IMG/VR virus record: IMGVR_UViG_2693429700_000023 | Source: a virus | Taxonomy: Duplodnaviria > Heunggongvirae > Uroviricota > Caudoviricetes | Reading direction: 5' to 3' (one strand) | Length of the DNA stretch: 10,586 nucleotides | Shown: positions 1 through 10,586 of the stretch, piece by piece | Layout of the letters: every line of letters starts with the position of its first letter | How positions within the stretch are numbered: position 1 is the stretch's first letter | The notes under the pieces: generated by a model | What the model saw: only the letters and a program-made list of their open reading frames with translations | Told to the model about the DNA's origin: nothing | Databases searched by the model: none | Position numbers and translations under genes: made by a program

Positions 1-87
1 CTGTGAGTCATATTCATCCTGACTTTCCAGAACCATACGAATCGCCCGCTGACGGACTTCGGGGGAAAAACGAGTATTTTTAGTCAT
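1..87 (-). CDS. IS3-family transposase OrfA (HTH subunit), N-terminal 29 codons, partial at window edge
   Basis: Reverse-complement translation from 87 gives MTKNTRFSPEVRQRAIRMVLESQDEYDSQ, which I recognise as the N-terminus of IS3-family OrfA proteins. Too short to appear in the ORF track. Confidence 0.6.
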   Translation of the reverse strand, partial: MTKNTRFSPEVRQRAIRMVLESQDEYDSQ

Positions 88-141
88 CCTGTTTACCTCT
101 TTCTCAGGGAGTTTAGTCTCCAGGATTTCCGGGGCGGTTCA
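1..141 (-). mobile_element. IS3-family insertion sequence, one end only (element continues beyond window start)
   Basis: Read on the minus strand from 141, the sequence begins 5'-TGAACCGCCCCGG, a TG-initiated terminal inverted repeat typical of IS3-family elements. It is followed by an SD (AAAGAGG) and an ATG at 87..85 opening a transposase OrfA-like ORF. The exact IS name cannot be assigned without ISfinder. Confidence 0.6.
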
Positions 142-887
142 TTCTGCATTGCTGCTGTTGGTGCATATGCTGACGTTAACGCATTTGCTCGGCTAATATC
201 CTGCCCTCTCGCCTGAAGTGCTTCGCCAGCCTGATTGCTGCGGATTGTCTCTGCCAACTCGCCGCGCTCAATATCCCGACCTTCCATTTGATCTTTGATA
301 TCGAAATACTTCTCATGACCGAGAGAAAACAGCGCCAGATTACCTGCGAAATGCTGGAAGCCCTGCGGGTCATTAACCTGCATTTCAGCAATAGTTTCTG
401 GAGGGATACCTAAACGACGCATCTCCTGCTCATTATCCATCATGAACCTGCCAAATGCGCCCGGACCAAGCGATGAGGCTACCTGTGCTTTGAGCGCCAG
501 ATTGCCATAATCATCCCTTTGAGCATCATCGACATAACTCATCCCTTTACGGACTTCCTCAAACTCTTCTGGGAATGCTGTAATAAGATTACGCATCTGC
601 TCCCTGTCGCCGGACGCATAAGCATCTGCATAACCTTTCTGGAATGCCGCTTTACGCTCCTGCTGTTGCTGCTGCTTATAAATATCAGCAACTCCAGCCA
701 GACCACGTAACGCGGTCAGACCAACGTTATTTGCACCTGAGCGAGCCAGTTCATTGTTTTCGCGGATCAGACCAAGCGTTGCGTTAATGTCGCTTGCCTT
801 TGGCGCATTCTCATTTTGCGTACCGATGCCAGCCAGAAAACCACCAGAATTAATACCCTGTTGCCACGTAGCCATTGATTTACCCAC
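93..887 (-). CDS. Hypothetical protein (~260 aa), 3' end disrupted by the IS insertion
   Basis: Long minus-strand ORF from the track. The track start at 887 is a GTG; the first ATG is at 875 (MATWQQGINSGG...). The last 16 codons (EPPRKSWRLNSLRKR) are encoded by the IS terminal repeat (93..141), so the native C-terminus is lost or replaced. Contains a QQQQQ run from a CTG/CAG tract near 661..676. No family recognised. Confidence 0.5.
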   Translation of the reverse strand: MGKSMATWQQGINSGGFLAGIGTQNENAPKASDINATLGLIRENNELARSGANNVGLTALRGLAGVADIYKQQQQQERKAAFQKGYADAYASGDREQMRNLITAFPEEFEEVRKGMSYVDDAQRDDYGNLALKAQVASSLGPGAFGRFMMDNEQEMRRLGIPPETIAEMQVNDPQGFQHFAGNLALFSLGHEKYFDIKDQMEGRDIERGELAETIRSNQAGEALQARGQDISRANALTSAYAPTAAMQNEPPRKSWRLNSLRKR

Positions 888-1053
888 GTCCAGTTAAAGT
901 GTAAGCCAGCGCCTTATCCATTAATCCCCGAGCAATTTCGTGGATCGTTGGCGCAACTCCTACCTCTGATTTTTTACGCTGCTCCTCCTGAATTTTCTTT
1001 ATCGCTTCCATTTGCTTCTCACTTATCAATACTGGCTTTACTGAAATAGCCAT
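880..1053 (-). CDS. Small hypothetical protein (57 aa), possibly a ribbon-helix-helix-type DNA-binding protein
   Basis: Found by hand translation (below the track length cutoff): MAISVKPVLISEKQMEAIKKIQEEQRKKSEVGVAPTIHEIARGLMDKALAYTLTGRG. ATG at 1053..1051 is preceded by SD AAGGGGG (1064..1058). The stop TAA (882..880) lies 4 nt before the ATG at 875 of the next gene. The strand-then-two-helices pattern suggests RHH, but this is inference. Confidence 0.45.
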   Translation of the reverse strand: MAISVKPVLISEKQMEAIKKIQEEQRKKSEVGVAPTIHEIARGLMDKALAYTLTGRG

Positions 1054-1066
1054 AACGCCCCCTTAG

Positions 1067-1092
1067 AACTGTATAAAACAACAGTTATTATA
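1067..1092 (-). promoter_or_regulatory. Candidate promoter -10 plus operator-like inverted repeat upstream of the 57-aa gene
   Basis: A perfect TATAAT on the minus strand (plus 1087..1092) sits about 35 nt upstream of the ATG at 1053. Immediately downstream is the inverted repeat AACTGT-N8-ACAGTT (1067..1086), between the -10 and the SD. No convincing -35 was found. Confidence 0.3.
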
Positions 1093-1145
1093 GTTTCACA
1101 AATCGCAATATTCATCATCGTAATTGCAAAATATGAAACAAATAG

Positions 1146-1181
1146 CACAAAAAAATGCCACCGCTCAGTAGCTGGTGGCAT
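1146..1181 (-). terminator. Intrinsic (rho-independent) terminator, minus strand
   Basis: The minus strand reads ATGCCACC-AGCTACTGAGC-GGTGGCAT followed by TTTTTTTGTG: an 8-bp GC-rich stem, 11-nt loop and 7-T tract. It lies downstream of the primase/ori region and upstream of the 57-aa gene promoter. Confidence 0.5.
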
Positions 1182-1375
1182 CGTTCTGTATGTCAGGTTT
1201 TGACAGGTTTTTTATGGACTCTAAAAACTATATTTATGGTGTCGCATTACTCTTCACGGCAGGCGCTTTCCAGTTCTGCCCTTGCTTCTGGCTCCATTGG
1301 TAATTTGATTCGCGATCAGCTATGCGGATGGTTTGCTGAACAGGCATAACAACTTCTCAAAGGCTGTTTTTTGAA

Positions 1376-1451
1376 CTACGAAAATTTCGTAGTGCTCACT
1401 TTCAAAAACGTCACGCCCTTGTACACAGGATTTTACGAAAGTCTCGTAAAA
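1376..1451. repeat. Two short perfect palindromes sharing a TACGA/TCGTA core
   Basis: CTACGAAA-A-TTTCGTAG at 1376..1392 and TTTTACGA-AAGTC-TCGTAAAA at 1431..1451. Both are just upstream of the iteron array; possible protein-binding sites. Confidence 0.5.
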
Positions 1452-1500
1452 CACTCTCTGATGCCAGCCAGGTGTTGTGCGCATCAATTCAGTCACATTG

Positions 1501-1613
1501 TGTTGGTTCAAAATACCGTGTTGTTGGTTCAGTGTTGGTTCAATAAAAAGAATAAAATCCTTATAAAACAATACTCTTTACAAATTGAACCAACTGAACC
1601 AACTGAACCAACA
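1501..1613. repeat. Iteron array (candidate origin of replication): 3 direct and 3 inverted copies of TGTTGGTTCA flanking an AT-rich spacer
   Basis: TGTTGGTTCA occurs at 1501..1510, 1522..1531 and 1533..1542. A ~43-bp AT-rich stretch follows (1543..1585), then three tandem TGAACCAAC units (the reverse complement) at 1586..1612. The array lies immediately downstream of the primase-helicase stop (1638). Confidence 0.6.
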
Positions 1614-1637
1614 CCTTTTCTACGCACATGAAGAAGC

Positions 1638-4394
1638 TCATTCTTCAGATGAGTTGTAATCTCCTGGCTGGTAATTGAGTACATAAACGTTTATTTGTCG
1701 TCCCTGAATACGTGGTGATTTTCTTTGGTATCCACGACCGCTGTTTGGTGGGGTTAGCATCCCGGCTTTTTTCAACACTTCAGCAAACTGTTTTGCGTTG
1801 AAACCACATGCGATCTCCTTTTCAAATGTGGCCGGGAATGTGTAGAAAATCATTGGGCTTTCGTCATGTTCTCCACGCTGACGGTATCCGGCTAAATCTT
1901 TGATTGGCAAATCTGCCGGGCTGTATGGAAATGGTGCAAAACGGCTAAGCCCATAGGCATTAAGAAATGCCTCCGTTTGTTCAATAATCTGCTGATGTTC
2001 TTTGTTACCTGTGCCGAACTCGCGCAACCATGCGTTATAGCTGTGCTGTATCGCATCACGGCATGTCTGAGCATCCCAGCCTGTTACAACCTCGCCTAAC
2101 AGCAATGCGGCCTCCAGAATGGCAAATCGCGCGGCTACACGGTGAACCTGCTCACCATAATCGGATGGAATCAGGCTTCTCCATCTGCTTTCGCAGTCAC
2201 GAACAGTTTTAATAGCCTGTTGCTGGTGGTCTGCCAGCCATTTAATCCACTCACGCCCGGCTGCGCCGTGGTGATGCTGGTAAGCGTCTTTCAGTGCGTC
2301 TGCGTGCTGTTTTCCGTTCTGGTAATCGTGAAAGCGTACTGCTTTACTCAACGGAATATTCAGCAGTCGCACCAGTTGCCCGGCTTTGGTTTTTCGCCCG
2401 GAAGTAGCGATAAATGTTTCTAAATCCATTTCTCCAGTGCTGATTGCCACTGTACGCCAGCGTTTTAGATCCCGGTTTCCACCATCTTTAGCGCCTTGCA
2501 GTTTCCCTACACCGTTAAATAACGCATAGGCAGACTGTGAAACACTGACAGGATCAGCGCCCTGACCAACTTCATCAAGCGGCATTAGTCCGTCATTGTG
2601 GGCGGCGGCTTCATTTGCCAGCCCCAGCGCGGTTCCGTACCACGTCAGCCGCAGTAAATCAGGGTTGCCGTATAAGCTGCTCGCCACGTTTGCCGTGGTG
2701 GTCTTACCTGCGCTCGACTGCTCATAGAAATGAATGCCGAACCCGTCAGCGCCCACCAGCCCAATCAATGGCGCTGCCAGTGCTGCGCCGATCCCGATCA
2801 TCATTGAATAGTTACCAAAGGCCAGACGCGCCACGTTATCACGCCAGCTTTTCGCGCTCCCTGAGACGGTATATCCGGCTGCGGCTGAGCTTCTCCCGCT
2901 GAACAGCACAGGATTTTCAGGTGTTCCGATGATTTCCCCATCAGGCATGATGTACGCTCCGCATTGCCAGCCAGTGGCATGAGCAACACGCCACAATTCA
3001 CGAGAGCCACTGCGTTGTAGCCAGTCTGCCAGTATTGCTCTGAGGCTGCTTTTGGTCGTGACATTTACCCCACCAGCTTTAAGTGTGCGCCATCCTTCAC
3101 GTTCACCAATATCAGCCAGTGGAATGGCAGCGGTTGTCGGCGTTTCAGAACCAAACGACAGCCAGCGAAGAATGAGATACTGGTCTTTATCGTCTCTGCC
3201 AGTACCGATAACGCTTAACGGAGAACATAACCAGCTTTCGTTATTGATGATTTCTCCACTCTGGCTGTCAGCTCTCGGAGATACCCAATAAATACCATCC
3301 TCGCGGCTTTCTATTCTTGGTTTCAGTGGGTCGGTATCCATAACCTTAAAATCGCTTCCCTCAATGGTCTGTGGCTGCTGTTTCACGCCATTACCCTGTG
3401 GTTGGTACATTGACTTATTGAACGCTTCTGTGGCGCATTTAATGCCGTGTTTTTGGTGGTAATCATTCCAGTCTGCTTTGTGATCTGTCGGGGGTAATGC
3501 CACCCATCCAGAAACAGATAAAGCTGCTTTTTCTGCTGCTATTCTCCCCGTGTTTTGTCTTCCTTCGCTGTGGTCGTTATCCGCAGCAATGATGATTTGT
3601 GCTGAAGGAAATTTATCCCGCAGTACCTGGGCGACATATAACAGGTTCCCGGCATCAATCGCCGCCACTGTCAGCGATTCTGGACGAATTAAATGGGCAG
3701 ATAATGCCGTTGCCAGCCCTTCTGCGATTAAGATGCTCTGTGTTGTTTCTGGTGCGTTTATGGCGTGATATGCCCCTCGCTTTGCTGAACCTGTCAGGAG
3801 TCTTTTTTCACCATGTGAGGTAATAGTCTGTGCTGCTGTGACTGCGCCGGATTTATCCACCAGCGCCAGCAACAGAGATCCATCGGGCAACACTGGGAAT
3901 GTAAAATCACCTACCCCTTTCGCAACCAGATAATCAGATTTGCCGTTTACAGCCTTTCTGCGCATGTCATCAAACTGACGGGAAAACGTATCCCGTCTTT
4001 GTTGTTCGTCCTTCTCTGCCCTTTTCAGGCGCTCCTGTTCGCGTCGCTGGCGCTCGGTTTCCAGTTGTTCCCGTTTCTGGCTGGTGGCTTCTGGTGTTTC
4101 CGTTGTCCGGTAATCAATACCCAGAACATCAGCGGCAAGAAGCGCCGCCTCTGTTGTGTCGCAGTTATTTACGCGTTTAATTAAATCCAGCCCATCACCA
4201 GCGCCGCACTGATTACAGATGAAGCTACCGCGCCCGTTGTCGTCGAACCGGAATCGATCTTTGCCCCCACATGCAGGGCAGGGAGCATGACGGCGAGGAG
4301 AGTCAGGGACATTTATGTTCAGACAGCCCAGCACATGAGGCCAGTTGTTTTCAGACGCACTGATAACCTGACGGATAAGATCAATGTTTCGCAT
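1638..4394 (-). CDS. Primase-helicase-like replication protein (N-terminal Zn-ribbon, TOPRIM, C-terminal P-loop/DUF927-like domain), 918 aa
   Basis: The N-terminus has CPACGG...CNQCG (CxxC-N17-CxxC zinc ribbon), then a charged ER-rich linker. The TOPRIM signatures are present: a conserved Glu (IAEGLATA) and DxD (IIIAADNDHSEGR). Further on is a deviant P-loop (SSAGKTT). SD GGGGG lies 5 nt upstream of the ATG at 4394. The family call is from motif recognition, not a search. Confidence 0.88.
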   Translation of the reverse strand: MRNIDLIRQVISASENNWPHVLGCLNINVPDSPRRHAPCPACGGKDRFRFDDNGRGSFICNQCGAGDGLDLIKRVNNCDTTEAALLAADVLGIDYRTTETPEATSQKREQLETERQRREQERLKRAEKDEQQRRDTFSRQFDDMRRKAVNGKSDYLVAKGVGDFTFPVLPDGSLLLALVDKSGAVTAAQTITSHGEKRLLTGSAKRGAYHAINAPETTQSILIAEGLATALSAHLIRPESLTVAAIDAGNLLYVAQVLRDKFPSAQIIIAADNDHSEGRQNTGRIAAEKAALSVSGWVALPPTDHKADWNDYHQKHGIKCATEAFNKSMYQPQGNGVKQQPQTIEGSDFKVMDTDPLKPRIESREDGIYWVSPRADSQSGEIINNESWLCSPLSVIGTGRDDKDQYLILRWLSFGSETPTTAAIPLADIGEREGWRTLKAGGVNVTTKSSLRAILADWLQRSGSRELWRVAHATGWQCGAYIMPDGEIIGTPENPVLFSGRSSAAAGYTVSGSAKSWRDNVARLAFGNYSMMIGIGAALAAPLIGLVGADGFGIHFYEQSSAGKTTTANVASSLYGNPDLLRLTWYGTALGLANEAAAHNDGLMPLDEVGQGADPVSVSQSAYALFNGVGKLQGAKDGGNRDLKRWRTVAISTGEMDLETFIATSGRKTKAGQLVRLLNIPLSKAVRFHDYQNGKQHADALKDAYQHHHGAAGREWIKWLADHQQQAIKTVRDCESRWRSLIPSDYGEQVHRVAARFAILEAALLLGEVVTGWDAQTCRDAIQHSYNAWLREFGTGNKEHQQIIEQTEAFLNAYGLSRFAPFPYSPADLPIKDLAGYRQRGEHDESPMIFYTFPATFEKEIACGFNAKQFAEVLKKAGMLTPPNSGRGYQRKSPRIQGRQINVYVLNYQPGDYNSSEE

Positions 4395-4406: not shown

Positions 4407-5009
4407 TTAGTGCGTCACTGGTGCTTCTGGGATGCCGTTTTCGTTTAGTTCGGCAATAAAGCTGTTGTGAAGATCGGCAAGCACTTCTCGCCCAAACGAA
4501 GTGAGTGTTCCCTGTTCGACATCGAACATGTTGCTGTAAAAAATGATGGCATTCTTTGTTCCGACATCAACACCATATTTCTCGATCATTGCGCCCTCAA
4601 TGTTGTTTGCCATAGCGAGGCGCTCTGCTACTGGATACAGCGGCATGGCGACGATGCCATTGGAATAAACAGAAACCACGGAATGATTGCCACTGTCATC
4701 AATAATGCTGACGGTGCCGTTTTCCTTTCTCATTTCATTGATGAATGCTGTTGCTATCAGCCAGCGCCACATAATCACGTGATGCTGTGATGTGTAATCG
4801 AAATATCCCTGGTTGCCGCCACTGGCAATAGCGAGATGTATAAACATGCCTTCATCTGGTTTATCGTCATAATCCCCGGCATCCAGACGATTTACGGCAT
4901 CAATATATGAGACGGTCTCAACGCGTTCTGTCATGCCATCGTTGCTGCGGTGCATGATGTTTACGCCGTCAGGCGTTGCTTCTGCATGGAAGGTTAAGAA
5001 ATTATTCAT
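4407..5009 (-). CDS. Hypothetical acidic protein (200 aa)
   Basis: The track ORF is 4407..5114, but I prefer the internal ATG at 5009 (MNNFLTFHAE...). It has SD GAGG 6 nt upstream and makes an ATGAATAA overlap with the stop of the upstream gene, whereas the longer N-terminal extension is Cys/Trp-rich and overlaps the neighbour. About 29 D/E versus 11 K/R. No family recognised. Confidence 0.6.
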   Translation of the reverse strand: MNNFLTFHAEATPDGVNIMHRSNDGMTERVETVSYIDAVNRLDAGDYDDKPDEGMFIHLAIASGGNQGYFDYTSQHHVIMWRWLIATAFINEMRKENGTVSIIDDSGNHSVVSVYSNGIVAMPLYPVAERLAMANNIEGAMIEKYGVDVGTKNAIIFYSNMFDVEQGTLTSFGREVLADLHNSFIAELNENGIPEAPVTH

Positions 5010-5223
5010 GTTTCGCCTCGCCTGAATGATTCTGTAACTCATATTTGCCCAACAATTCGTCCGCTTCCTGAATAGCTTCTGGTACGCCATTGAGCAGTGA
5101 CATAACCGCGCCAATCATTAACTTGTCTCTGTTGCTGGGGCTGGCCCCTTCAAGCCAGAACCCTAAAACAGTCTGAACCTGTTCGATGCGACATTGCGCT
5201 TCAATGAGCTGGATGTTGGTCAT
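5002..5223 (-). CDS. Hypothetical small protein (73 aa)
   Basis: Track ORF with SD GGAGAG 7 nt upstream of the ATG at 5223. Its start overlaps the upstream stop (ATGA) and its stop overlaps the downstream start (ATGAATAA). Net acidic. Confidence 0.5.
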   Translation of the reverse strand: MTNIQLIEAQCRIEQVQTVLGFWLEGASPSNRDKLMIGAVMSLLNGVPEAIQEADELLGKYELQNHSGEAKHE

Positions 5224-5483
5224 TTCGCACTCTCCACATCGATTAAACCGATATCTATCAGGGAGGTAACTTTTTGTAGCCAGCTATTGATTACTGTCGC
5301 CTGTTCCCCTCCCACCGAGGGAACAATCTCATTCATCACATGAACCAGACCTGTGCGCGCTCTGGTAAGCCGTTCAGTCGCGCAATCTGCGGGAGTGAAT
5401 GTGTCTGGATATGGCTCTTCACGCCCCAGCAATGATTCAATTTCCAGCTCACACGGATGACGATAAATTAAGTTGATATTCAT
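5220..5483 (-). CDS. Hypothetical small protein (87 aa)
   Basis: Track ORF with SD GGGGGTG upstream of the ATG at 5483 and ATGA overlaps at both ends. Net acidic. Confidence 0.5.
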   Translation of the reverse strand: MNINLIYRHPCELEIESLLGREEPYPDTFTPADCATERLTRARTGLVHVMNEIVPSVGGEQATVINSWLQKVTSLIDIGLIDVESAK

Positions 5484-5674
5484 TTTTCACCCCCAAGAAT
5501 TACCAGCTCGGCACGGGCATCGTTAACCAAAGATGAGCACGCTTTAATCGCATCCACGACATCAGCAGCGTCCATTTCTTCAGCCGAAAGACTGACAGCA
5601 ACCAGGACAGCCGCTGCTTGCTCGATTAATTGAAGTGCGGACGTAAGGCGAGGGGTATTAATTGAGTTATTCAT
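5480..5674 (-). CDS. Hypothetical small protein (64 aa)
   Basis: The track ORF is 5480..5731; I prefer the internal ATG at 5674 ([10 protein letters not shown]...), which has SD GGGGG upstream and overlaps the upstream stop as ATGAATAA. Predicted helical and acidic. Confidence 0.45.
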   Translation of the reverse strand: MNNSINTPRLTSALQLIEQAAAVLVAVSLSAEEMDAADVVDAIKACSSLVNDARAELVILGGEK

Positions 5675-5885
5675 TGGTTGCCCCCGTTTTTCCTGGCATT
5701 TCGCCACCTTCCAGCAGGAAATGAACGTCACGAACGGCGAGATCCAATATCGCGAGTAACGCCTTCAGCCTTTCGTCTCGTGAGGGAGAGTTGCTCACCA
5801 GAATGTCGTTAATCACTTCTGTCAGTGTGATGATCTGGCTTGTGCGTTCGAGGGGATCCATATGCACATCGTAGGTTTTAATCAT
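5667..5885 (-). CDS. Hypothetical small protein (72 aa), modelled as a separate gene in the 3' part of the 355-codon ORF
   Basis: The internal ATG at 5885..5883 ([15 protein letters not shown]...) is preceded by a strong SD GGAGGTGG and overlaps the stop of the frame-B gene as ATGATTAA. Codon usage from here to the stop at 5667 looks coding. This is an alternative model to the full 355-aa ORF. Confidence 0.45.
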   Translation of the reverse strand: MIKTYDVHMDPLERTSQIITLTEVINDILVSNSPSRDERLKALLAILDLAVRDVHFLLEGGEMPGKTGATNE

Positions 5886-6734
5886 GTGCCACCTCCATGC
5901 GGATACGACCAGCAAAAAAGCAGACGTGATCGCGCACCAGAGAACGGCGAGCATCGCGTTCAGACTCGGCAGCAATATGATGAATTTTGGCGGTAATTGT
6001 CGGGCAATCGCGGCGAACTGCGGCGATAATCCAGATAAATTGCGGTTTTTGGGTAGGGGTAGTAGCCAGCATGTGGCAGCCTCCATTCGATAGCATGTAA
6101 CGCTACCACCGGAAACGCCAATTTCGCTGGTGGTAGCCCAGACAGGGTTGGCGTAACCGGCTCGAATGGATACCGGCGCTTCCGAAGAAGCCCCTGCCTG
6201 AGCCACCATTGATTGACAAAGGCGCTGGATTATACACCAACGCCCAAAAAATGGGTGAGTCAGACCTACGACATAAAAAAAGACGCTCGGCGCGTCATAT
6301 GTCGCCATTCGATTTACCAGGACGCCAATCCCGGCACCCGTTTTATGAGGTGCCTTATAACCATAAACCGTGTTGCCGCATAACGGCAAGCTCTTTTTTA
6401 TGGACTCCGAAAACTCGCTATTGGAAGCACCAGATGCACAGTACATCGCGCTCATTTCGTTAACGTCACGCGCGTGGACGAATGTTTTTGTGGAGTCACT
6501 ACACGAGCGGAAGACATCATCTACGACCAGAAATTTTCTGGCGCAGCCGCTGACCTTCTCAATGCTAATATCATCGCCCGAGATTTCTGATATGGTTAAG
6601 GCATCCGTTCCGACCACCAGCAAATGATAAACTTTGCTTGTATCTGCTGTATTAATGCCTGACTTTGCCGTCATATTGCTGGATTTTGGCGACATACCAG
6701 CCAGTGAAAATGTCTTCTTCTGGACGGTTAGCAT
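5667..6734 (-). CDS. Uninterrupted 355-codon ORF; the N-terminal ~220 codons look like a real unknown gene, 3' boundary unresolved
   Basis: ATG at 6734 has SD GGAGG 7 nt upstream and overlaps the upstream stop (ATGCTAA). The N-terminal region is protein-like and contains KFLVVDDVF (6510..6536). The frame stays open to 5667, but between about 6072 and 5886 the coding signal moves to another frame. The true product is therefore either a 355-aa fusion or a shorter protein with an unseen end. Confidence 0.45.
5878..6072 (-). CDS. Hypothetical small protein (64 aa) in a different frame from the 355-codon ORF
   Basis: Track ORF 5878..6096; I prefer the second ATG at 6072 ([16 protein letters not shown]...), which has SD GGAGG 7 nt upstream. 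This frame uses common codons with G-rich first positions, whereas the overlapping frame of the 355-codon ORF is Leu/Pro/Ser-rich with rare codons (CTA, TTA, CCC, CGA, ATA, AGG). Confidence 0.5.
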   Translation of the reverse strand: MLATTPTQKPQFIWIIAAVRRDCPTITAKIHHIAAESERDARRSLVRDHVCFFAGRIRMEVAHD

Positions 6735-7748: not shown

Positions 7749-8180
7749 TTAGGCGGCGTTAAACGCGTCCGGGTAGAGTTTCAGAATGTCGGCAATTTCC
7801 TGCTGAGAAAGTCCGTTGTGATCATTTATGCTCGCAAGATGGTTAACATGAGTGATCACTTTCAGAACATCACCACGGCAGGAGAAACGGTAGCGAAGGT
7901 GTGTTCCGATACCATCAGGATTCTTTTCGTCGATACGCTCCAGAGTGATTCCAAGCTGGCGTTCTAACTCTGTTGCATAGTTACGACCAGAAGACAGACG
8001 GCAGTAGCGAAGAATGTCATTTTCTGTCCATCCCTCTATACCAGTACGCAGCATATAGACTCTGGCACGATGCTTTTTCGGTGTGCGCTTTGGTGCTTGA
8101 AGGGATTTTGTCAGGGGCGTAACATCAGATACGCGAATATCTGAATTAGCCGCCTGTAATGGGCGGTTTTTCTTTTCCAT
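7749..8180 (-). CDS. Hypothetical protein (143 aa)
   Basis: Track ORF. Its ATG at 8180 shares one base with the alpA stop (TGATG) and is preceded by GAGGTGG encoded in the alpA C-terminus. Basic N-terminus; no family recognised. Confidence 0.55.
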   Translation of the reverse strand: MEKKNRPLQAANSDIRVSDVTPLTKSLQAPKRTPKKHRARVYMLRTGIEGWTENDILRYCRLSSGRNYATELERQLGITLERIDEKNPDGIGTHLRYRFSCRGDVLKVITHVNHLASINDHNGLSQQEIADILKLYPDAFNAA

Positions 8181-8383
8181 CAGGCCACCTCGTCTCTAGA
8201 TTCTAATATACACTTCTCAATCCATTCATCTATTTCAGACTCAACAAAAGCAATTGCCCGACTTCCAATTTTTACCTGTTTAGGGAACCTCCCCTGACTA
8301 ATAAGACGATAAATCCATGCTTTGCTATAACCAGTTCGCCTTTGAACTTCAGAGAGACGAATTAATGAATTGTAATTAGCCAT
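8180..8383 (-). CDS. alpA: AlpA-family (prophage regulatory / excisionase-like HTH) transcriptional regulator, 67 aa
   Basis: A small protein with an HTH-like core (IRLSEVQRRTGYSKAWIYRLISQGRFPKQVKIGSRAIAFVESEIDEW) resembling AlpA-type regulators, placed directly downstream of an integrase remnant as in P4-like and PICI-like elements. Confidence 0.75.
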   Translation of the reverse strand: MANYNSLIRLSEVQRRTGYSKAWIYRLISQGRFPKQVKIGSRAIAFVESEIDEWIEKCILESRDEVA

Positions 8384-8662: not shown

Positions 8663-8977
8663 TCAGCGCCGTAGATTCATATTTGAATCATTGTATGTTT
8701 CCCGGGCAATCTTTTCCTCTCGTTTCGCTTCCATCGGATCGATACCACCAGCGATACCTCTTTTCGCATCTTCACGTTTTGCCCGAGCATCGGCTAGAGT
8801 AACCTCAGGATACACACCTAGTGCCAATAGCTTCTCTTTACCAGCTACACGATATTTAAGTCGCCAGTATTTACCTCCATTAGGTTTTACCAAGAGATAC
8901 AAACCGCCACCATCGGCCAGCTTGTAAGCCTTCTCTTTTGGCTTGGCTGTGTCTATTTGACGGGCATTGAGTTTCAC
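8663..8977 (-). pseudogene. Tyrosine integrase (P4-family) remnant: N-terminal arm-binding region only, 104 codons
   Basis: The ORF (GTG start at 8977, SD GGAGGT upstream) encodes KLNARQIDTAKPKEKAYKLADGGGLYLLVKPNGGKYWRLKYR..., which resembles the N-terminal arm-type DNA-binding domain of tRNA-associated integrases. Full-length enzymes are about 400 aa, and only 279 bp remain before alpA, so the catalytic domain is absent. Confidence 0.7.
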
Positions 8978-9142: not shown

Positions 9143-9218
9143 TGGTGCCGATAATAGGAGTCGAACCTACGACCTTCGCATTACGAATGCGCTGCTCTAC
9201 CAACTGAGCTATATCGGC
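9143..9218 (-). tRNA. thrW: tRNA-Thr (anticodon CGU)
   Basis: The reverse complement is a 76-nt tRNA with a 7-bp acceptor stem (GCCGATA/TATCGGC), a D-arm GCTCAGTTGGTAGAGC, anticodon loop TTCGTAA (anticodon CGT), T-arm GGTTCGACTCC and a 3' CCA. The CCA end (9143..9145) faces the mobile-element side. Confidence 0.95.
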
Positions 9219-9332: not shown

Positions 9333-10586
9333 TTACGCACGAATGGTGTAATCACCAATGCCGATCCACTTGTAAGTGGTCAGTGCTTCCAGCCCCATTG
9401 GGCCACGCGCGTGGAGTTTTTGTGTGCTTACCGCCACTTCCGCACCCAGACCAAACTGGCCGCCGTCGGTAAAACGCGTAGAGGCGTTAACGTAAACAGC
9501 GGACGAATCCACTTCGTTAACAAAACGCTGGGCGTTGCGCATATCGCGGGTCAGGATCGCATCGGAGTGTTGTGTGCCGTGTTCACGAATATGGGCGATG
9601 GCATCGTCAAGATCGCTGACGATTTTGACGTTCAAATCTAATGACAGAAACTCATCGTCATACTCTTCGGCTTTAACAGCAACCACCTTCGCAGGGCCTG
9701 CCTGCAACTGCGCCAGTGCAGCTGCATCTGCGTGTAATGTCACGCCGCTTTCCGCCATTTGTTTGCTTAATGCGGGCAGGAAGCTATCGGCGATGTTTTT
9801 ATTCACCAGCAACGTTTCAACCGTATTACATGTGCTCGGACGCTGAGTTTTCGCGTTGACGATCACTTTTAATGCTTCAGCGATCTCTACACTTTCATCA
9901 ACGTAAATATGGCATACGCCTATACCACCTGTGATCACCGGGATTGTCGACTGTTCACGGCACAGTTTATGCAAACCAGCGCCACCACGCGGGATCAGCA
10001 TGTCGATGTATTTATCCATACGCAGCATTTCACTGACCAGCGCACGGTCAGGATTATCAATCGCCTGCACGGCACCCGCCGGTAAGCCGCAGGATTTCAG
10101 GGCGTCCTGAATCACCGCCACCGTTGCAGCGTTAGTGCGACACGTTTCTTTGCCACCGCGCAGGATCACCGCATTACCGGTTTTCAGGCACAGCGAAGCG
10201 ACATCAACCGTCACGTTCGGGCGCGCTTCATAAATCACGCCAATAACCCCCAGCGGTACGCGACGACGCTCAAGACGCAGGCCGCTGTCCAGTACGCTGC
10301 CATCGATTACCTGCCCCACCGGATCGGCGAGGTTACACACCTGGCGCACATCATCGGCAATGCCTTTCAGCCGTGCGGGCGTCAGTGCCAGACGGTCAAG
10401 CATCGCTTCGCCAAGGCCATTGGCACGCGCGTCAGCAACATCCTGGGCGTTAGCGTTGAGGATGATTTCGCTTTGTGCTTCCAGTTCATCGGCGATTTTT
10501 TCCAGCACGCGATTTTTTTCGCGGCTGGAGAGTTGCGCTAATTTATACGAGGCTTGCTTCGCGGCAATGCCCATTTGTTCCAGCAT
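9333..10586 (-). CDS. proA: Gamma-glutamyl phosphate reductase (glutamate-5-semialdehyde dehydrogenase), 417 aa
   Basis: The translation ([38 protein letters not shown] ... [14 protein letters not shown]) matches enterobacterial ProA as I recall it, at the correct 417-aa length. The ATG is the last three bases of the window. Confidence 0.95.

Follow-up and report, generated by a model that had tools for sequence, protein, structure and literature searches.

IS1203 disrupts a P22 gp20-type gene in an EcCIMP1-like island

In the window, by which we mean the whole 10,586-nucleotide stretch of DNA that was analyzed, the insertion sequence IS1203 disrupts a 488-aa gp20-type gene of an EcCIMP1-like island, a finding in which we place high confidence. 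The interrupted gene had initially been described as one of unknown function encoding a protein of about 260 aa with its 3′ end cut. That description was not upheld, as the gene is that of a 488-aa P22 gp20-type ejection protein (PF16928, phrog_917) halved at its midpoint. In the proposed mechanism, a 1310-bp IS1203 would have transposed into codon 245/246 of this gene, within a PICI located at tRNA-Thr (thrW) beside proA on an E. coli-type chromosome. As the IS and the gene point in the same direction, translation would enter the left inverted repeat and end after 15 codons, 5 nt short of the transposase start, and the resulting 260-aa product would be without the C-terminal 243 residues. The locations of the features are given in Table 1.

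Table 1. Features of the window. Positions are those of the whole stretch; L-numbers designate the loci used for comparison, as introduced in the text.
Feature	Position	Strand	Basis
IS1203 left-terminal 141 bp (IS629 isoform, IS3 family)	1..141	-	141/141 identity to L015 1501-1641
IS1203 transposase orfA, first 29 codons (MTKNTRFSPEVRQRAI...)	1..87	-	L015 transposase CDS begins at IS position 55
Chimeric ORF, 260 aa + stop (gp20-type 5′ half fused to IS)	93..875	-	exact product on 4 contigs
15 IS-coded codons (EPPRKSWRLNSLRKR) + TAA	93..140	-	codon table
Left terminal inverted repeat (IRL), TGAACCGCCCCGGAAATCCTGGAGA	117..141	-	22/25 matches to the reverse-complemented right end of the L015 full copy
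Native 5′ half, codons 1-245 of the 488-codon gp20-type gene	141..875	-	245/245 identity to the L001 allele
TTC, presumed copy of the target-site duplication	142..144		inferred by analogy with the 3-bp duplications of L015, L005 and L006 (AAG, TAT, ACC)
QQQQQ tract, CAG CAG CAA CAG CAG	660..674	-	codon table
57-aa ORF, conserved first gene of the ejection cassette	880..1053	-	WP_001018522.1 at the same position in L001 and L005
Primase/helicase (Zn-ribbon, Toprim, DUF927)	1638..4394	-	Pfam; 98.4% nt identity to the EcCIMP1 primase region (L004)
235-aa ORF	4407-5114	-	phrog_1515 match; conserved just before the primase gene in EcCIMP1-like islands
ash-family ORF, 355 aa	5667-6734	-	putative; contains the C4 antisense RNA and isrK matches on the same strand
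C4 antisense RNA	6126-6213	-	candidate; Rfam match, 79.5 bits
isrK	6276-6353	-	candidate; Rfam match, 67.1 bits
AlpA	8180-8383	-	Pfam
Integrase stub, 104 aa, Arm-DNA-binding	8663-8977	-	1264-bp deletion relative to L001
tRNA-Thr (CGU), attachment site with att core TCCTATTATC	9143..9218	-	ARAGORN and Rfam
proA	9333-10586	-	next to tRNA-Thr

Position 1 of the window is the terminus of the draft contig CYAS01000054.1 (GCA_001283645.1) and lies inside the IS. Read downward from position 141, the minus strand gave TGAACCGCCCCGGAAATCCTGGAGA..., and positions 1-141 were a 100% match to copies annotated as 'IS3-like element IS1203 family transposase' in many E. coli genomes. The reference copy was that of the O157:H7 strain PV15-279 (L015 1501-2810), which is 1310 bp long, has TGAACC...GGTTCA ends, splits espY2 and carries the 3-bp duplication AAG on both flanks. 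Its end is identical to that in the window, and its transposase is annotated with a programmed frameshift. The IS3-type terminus 5′-TG...CA-3′ with imperfect inverted repeats was present, the end being TGAACCGCCCCGG..., and the earlier claim that the gene is bordered at position 141 by an IS3-family element was thus confirmed by an unbroken match to IS1203 (141/141). Only 11% of the IS1203 copy falls inside the window, the other ~1169 bp lying outside the draft contig. IS1203 itself is considered an IS629 isoform (PMC3271280).

The orientation of the IS is the same as that of the interrupted gene, and orfA, whose ATG is at 87..85, 5 nt past the stop codon of the chimeric ORF, reads away from the junction. 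With so short a spacing, the two frames could conceivably be coupled in translation. A 23-aa partial gene was called at the orfA position on an independent ENA metagenome contig (L003). The initial annotation had further proposed an outward-reading IS that could supply promoter activity to the flanking DNA. This found no support in the sequence of the end, which is the IRL, from which orfA reads inward, and in which a consensus promoter scan found no promoter-like site; over window 1-1700 the same scan gave one such site, where 2.7 would arise by chance. If the IS acts outward at all, it would do so from its right end.

Alignment with the uninterrupted allele of strain 510016 (L001) was perfect from position 141 upward and random below it, with the break at 140/141. 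Codon 245 (AAT, 143..141) straddles the junction, and its last base is the first T of the IS. The IS-coded tail that follows reads GAA CCG CCC CGG AAA TCC TGG AGA CTA AAC TCC CTG AGA AAG AGG, with the TAA at 95..93, and the product is composed of 245 native and 15 IS-coded residues, 260 aa in total. The replacement of the native C-terminus by an IS-encoded tail, previously counted as 16 codons, was therefore borne out, as 15 residues and the stop codon. Moreover, the uninterrupted alleles continue beyond the break rather than ending there with a similar tail, and the TGAACC end is that of IS1203; both results agree with the truncation that had been proposed.

The start codon of the chimeric ORF was assigned to the ATG at 875, since the RefSeq start of identical alleles and the N-terminus of P22 gp20 agree on it; the P22 protein and the window protein, when the latter is read from this codon, share the N-terminal residues MATWQQGINSGG. 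The upstream GTG at 887 was considered as a start and rejected on the basis of the RefSeq annotation of the identical alleles and of homology.

The window begins at a contig end inside a multicopy IS, a setting in which a repeat can induce a chimeric contig end, and the junction might on that ground be ascribed to misassembly. We consider this highly improbable. The identical ORF and junction were called on four contigs, among them an NCBI assembly and the ENA metagenome contig L003, which is 100% identical to window 17-1160, and the recurrence of the same chimeric protein in these two sources argues against a one-off assembly artefact. In addition, the break falls at the exact IS terminus, TG...CA, as it would in a real transposition. 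The junction is real. Among 5,426 complete E. coli genomes, no record covered 80% or more of window 1-320, the segment containing the junction; the uninterrupted arrangement over window 141-1100 was found in 132 of these genomes.

The identity of the interrupted gene was established by profile searches. Residues 12-228 matched Pfam PF16928 (Inj_translocase, 'DNA/protein translocase of phage P22 injectosome') with an E-value of 1.3e-85 and a score of 287 bits against a curated cut-off of 29.7, over profile positions 1-217 of 218. The match to phrog_917 (E 5e-119) spanned profile positions 1-246 of 509 in the window copy and 1-504 in the intact allele, which identifies the window copy as a truncated member of the gp20-type family. 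The intact allele encodes 488 aa, of which 243 residues are lost after codon 245, and the window copy thus falls short of the ~440-510 aa, including a C-terminal half, expected of the family. The Pfam domain itself is wholly retained. Residues 1-238 were 54.8% identical to P22 gp20, and the C-terminal half of the intact allele was 52% identical to APSE P33 and not P22-like. A search of the PDB with the 488-aa protein returned no sequence relatives, and a search of NCBIfam with six proteins returned no matches.

In the intact alleles, the stop codon of the gp20-type gene is overlapped by the next gene, which encodes a 701-aa gp16-type injection protein (phrog_770). Our Pfam search of the 701-aa protein gave no match, although the precomputed tables assign it to PF26808. 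The order of gp20-type gene directly upstream of gp16-type gene was found in the uninterrupted alleles L001, L007, L010, L011 and L013. The start MATWQQGINSGG and the position upstream of a gp16-type gene, as seen in the intact alleles, are shared with P22 gp20, to which APSE P33 is homologous. Unlike its counterparts in P22 and APSE, the gene described here belongs to an island of satellite type in which genes for a capsid, a tail or lysis are not seen, and the window copy is, in comparison with P22 gp20 and APSE P33, without its whole C-terminal half.

The gp20-type proteins compared were mosaic, with the N-terminal ~215 residues conserved and C-terminal halves of unrelated types. The C-terminal type was P22-like in strains UTME-9 and E10 and in P22, and APSE P33-like in L001 and the window lineage. 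The IS site lies near the exchange boundary at residues ~215-245 (window ~141-230).

Over codons 1-210, dN/dS was 0.125 relative to another island copy, 0.077 relative to the copy of a P22-like prophage and 0.17 relative to P22. These values (0.08-0.17) indicate that until recently the gp20-type gene was functional and under purifying selection. The retained 735 bp of the window copy were 100% identical to intact alleles, from which we infer that the insertion is recent. The truncated gene would be best read from its sequence as a non-functional pseudogene.

A different reading is that the 260-aa protein is a selected, functional allele, with, for instance, the conserved N-terminal Inj_translocase half still being loaded into helper capsids, where it could be enough for injection or could work as a dominant negative against a P22-like helper. 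Its advocates could point to the complete Pfam domain (residues 12-228), to a cut placed close to the natural mosaic boundary (~215-245) at which P22- and APSE-type C-termini are exchanged, and to the presence of the chimeric ORF in more than one data set. We nevertheless judge it very unlikely, since a C-terminal half longer than 190 aa is retained in every phage homologue and in each of the 132 uninterrupted alleles, the tail derives by accident from the IS, and the integrase gene of the same island is also destroyed, which points to decay.

The genes of the window, all on the minus strand, are in the order proA, tRNA-Thr, integrase stub, AlpA, a 143-aa ORF, an AntA-type antirepressor, DUF4222, the ash-family ORF, small ORFs, the Zn-ribbon/Toprim/DUF927 primase, the 57-aa ORF and the gp20-type gene. 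This is the layout of a PICI, with int, a co-oriented alpA and a primase module, and with capsid, tail and lysis genes absent in view. The interrupted gene comes after the primase gene and so belongs to the post-primase module. The site is likewise that of a PICI, namely tRNA-Thr next to proA with the att core TCCTATTATC, one att end being inside the window; GATAATAGGA was located on the plus strand at about 9151-9160, within the tRNA gene. The integrase expected of a functional PICI is not intact, and because it is cut to 104 aa, the element is classed as a defective PICI relative rather than a functional PICI.

The closest described relative is EcCIMP1 of E. coli MP1, for which excision, induction and transduction by the P22-like phage Kapi1 were demonstrated experimentally (PMC11773190). 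The same study located EcCIMP1 at the tRNA-Thr between proA and yagU, with the att core TCCTATTATC, and named its P22-type genes as candidate packaging or 'DNA transfer' genes only (PMC11773190). The backbone of the window island (int, alpA, antA, DUF4222, ash/C4-isrK and primase) was 94-98% identical in nucleotide sequence to that of EcCIMP1, and the two islands have in common the integration site, the att core and the order int-alpA-antirepressor-DUF4222-ash-primase. In both island types, the primase gene is followed by P22-type 'DNA transfer' genes. The EcCIMP1 cassette comprises gp14 (DUF2824), gp7, a gp20 of 439 aa and a gp16 of 906 aa with a lytic transglycosylase domain, whereas the window island type, as represented by L001, has only the 57-aa ORF, a gp20 of 488 aa and a gp16 of 701 aa. 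The window copy further differs from EcCIMP1 in its truncated integrase and IS-split gp20 gene, and its mobilization is unlikely.

The 57-aa ORF at the head of the cassette had no match in Pfam, PHROG or NCBIfam. Between it and the primase gene is a noncoding gap of ~580 bp (1054-1637) with a terminator-like hairpin at 1172-1157 on the minus strand; the gap is presumably where the ejection cassette has its promoter or regulatory region. The 235-aa ORF on the other side of the primase gene is without a Pfam match and is annotated as 200 aa in relatives.

Over 8.5 kb, the window differed from L001 by four substitutions, a 10-bp indel and the 1264-bp deletion. The deletion (L001 17575-18838; junction near window 8697-8704) is bounded by the 8-bp repeat GTTTCCCG and takes ~313 of the 404 integrase codons, so that the catalytic domain is lost and the 104-aa stub remains. 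With the catalytic domain absent and the ejection gene split, this copy is best seen as an immobilized, decaying island, and in the proposed mechanism the IS insertion and the integrase deletion would together be the marks of that state. The 10-bp indel, at window ~6010, consists of GCGGCGAACT, which L001 has at 14870-14879 and the window lacks. This difference is the probable reason why the ash ORF is a single 355-aa frame in the window and in UTME-9 and is split in the annotation of strain 510016.

A simple insertion with a TTC duplication, with the 3′ half of the gp20-type gene and the gp16-type gene situated beyond the IS, is the outcome towards which the analysis leans, if only modestly. 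Under this outcome, the sequence beside the right IS end would be CTGATTGTAATTC, from the 3′ half of the gp20-type gene; the right end of IS1203 reads ...CCAGGAAACCCGGGGCGGTTCA, and the predicted junction sequence is ...GAGCGTACTGATTGTAATTC joined to TGAACCGCCCCGGGTTTCC. A search for the predicted second junction, CTGATTGTAATTC+TGAACCGCCCC, returned no hits in genome_contigs and none in metagenome_contigs, neither of which is expected to hold the source assembly. When the lost C-terminal half was used as a protein query, the short hits P0001, P0005 and P0023 proved to be contig-edge fragments or disrupted alleles of other assemblies, and a protein query with the gp16-type neighbor led to the contigs of P0033 and P0034 but not to GCA_001283645.1.

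In genomes of O157, matching duplications were found at only 21 of 47 IS629 sites (PMC3271280), and this proportion makes an IS-associated rearrangement a realistic alternative. The IS copy would then be the boundary of a deletion or rearrangement in which an adjacent deletion or IS-IS recombination removed the 3′ half, the gp16-type gene and possibly the distal arm. That fewer than half of the O157 sites retain a matching duplication (PMC3271280) speaks for such a boundary, as do the end of the contig inside the IS, the integrase deletion already present in the island, and the case of E. coli H386, in which an IS629-type end abuts the same gene and the distal arm is ~3 kb shorter than in L001. 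Against it, the two cases found in complete genomes, UTME-9 and E10, each show a clean insertion in which a 3-bp duplication and the two halves of the gene are present, and the complete identity of the retained part to intact alleles suggests a recent event that left little time for secondary rearrangement. On balance we regard a rearrangement as a serious contender, yet one that probably did not occur, and retain simple insertion as the preferred reading.

Insertions of IS629-family elements in gp20-type genes were found independently in at least three other strains. In the PICI of UTME-9 (L005 4830-6140) the insertion is near codon 411, with the duplication TAT and both halves of the gene present. 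In E10 (L006 ~4832-6140), where the gene belongs to a true P22-like prophage, it is near codon 344, with the duplication ACC and again both halves. In the PICI of H386 (L010 1-286), an IS629-type end lies near codon 277 in the opposite orientation, and the contig begins inside the IS. IS629 is biased toward prophage-like DNA. The repeated hits in gp20 may reflect a hotspot or simply this bias.

The event is ordinary pseudogenization by IS629/IS1203 in a published PICI family. Comparable insertions in prophage-like genes of E. coli include espY2::IS1203 of PV15-279 and those recorded in surveys of O157 (PMC3271280), and the window copy shares with them an IS identical over 141/141 positions, the TG...CA termini, a target within prophage-like DNA and the splitting of a gene. 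Copies with both ends visible carry 3-bp duplications, whereas the window shows one IS end. The target also differs, being a gp20-type gene of a PICI. The importance of the case is small: it is a further instance of E. coli prophage-like DNA being worn down by IS629/IS1203, and it accounts for a truncated ORF that might otherwise be taken for a new protein of 260 aa. It also draws attention to the EcCIMP1-like PICI family, published and little studied, and to the question of why satellites carry their own P22-type ejection genes, for which natural IS knock-outs could serve as ready mutants.

One tentative answer, which we hold to be possible and rather doubtful, is that satellites of the EcCIMP1 type keep an exchangeable P22-type ejection cassette (gp20 and gp16, with or without gp14 and gp7) under purifying selection, and that its products are loaded into helper capsids for the satellite's own injection or for interference with the helper. 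If this were true, the IS1203 allele and the IS629-type hits of UTME-9 and H386 would be natural knock-outs of the ejection module. In the literature on ejection proteins encoded by PICIs, the EcCIMP1 paper (PMC11773190) was the only one found to touch on the subject.

Two minor statements of the initial annotation concerned the composition of the protein. A QQQQQ tract, presented as a potential slippage site, is indeed encoded at 660-674, by two perfect CAG units on each side of one CAA. Tandem Repeats Finder did not report the tract as a tandem repeat, and its length was the same in L001 and L005 (L006 reads QQQKQ). Since the tract is not a tandem repeat and its length does not vary among the compared alleles, there is no sign of slippage. 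The richness in A, G and Q was also found (13.1%, 9.6% and 8.1%, respectively); it is common to the phage homologues and is without special meaning.

At least three versions of the ejection cassette were observed among EcCIMP1-like islands. The first (L004 12598-17944) consists of a small ORF, gp14, gp7, the 439-aa gp20 and the 906-aa gp16 with its lytic transglycosylase domain; the second (L013 270-5106) of a small ORF, gp14, gp7, a gp20 of 473 aa and a gp16 of 701 aa; and the third (L001 6164-9913) of a small ORF, the 488-aa gp20 and the 701-aa gp16 only. Two fusion proteins were found in other assemblies: P0006 (415 aa), in which the Zn-ribbon of the primase is fused to a gp20-type C-terminal part, and P0150 (818 aa), in which DUF927/Zn-ribbon/Toprim is fused to a gp16-type protein. 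These fusions imply that in other strains the island has undergone internal deletions.
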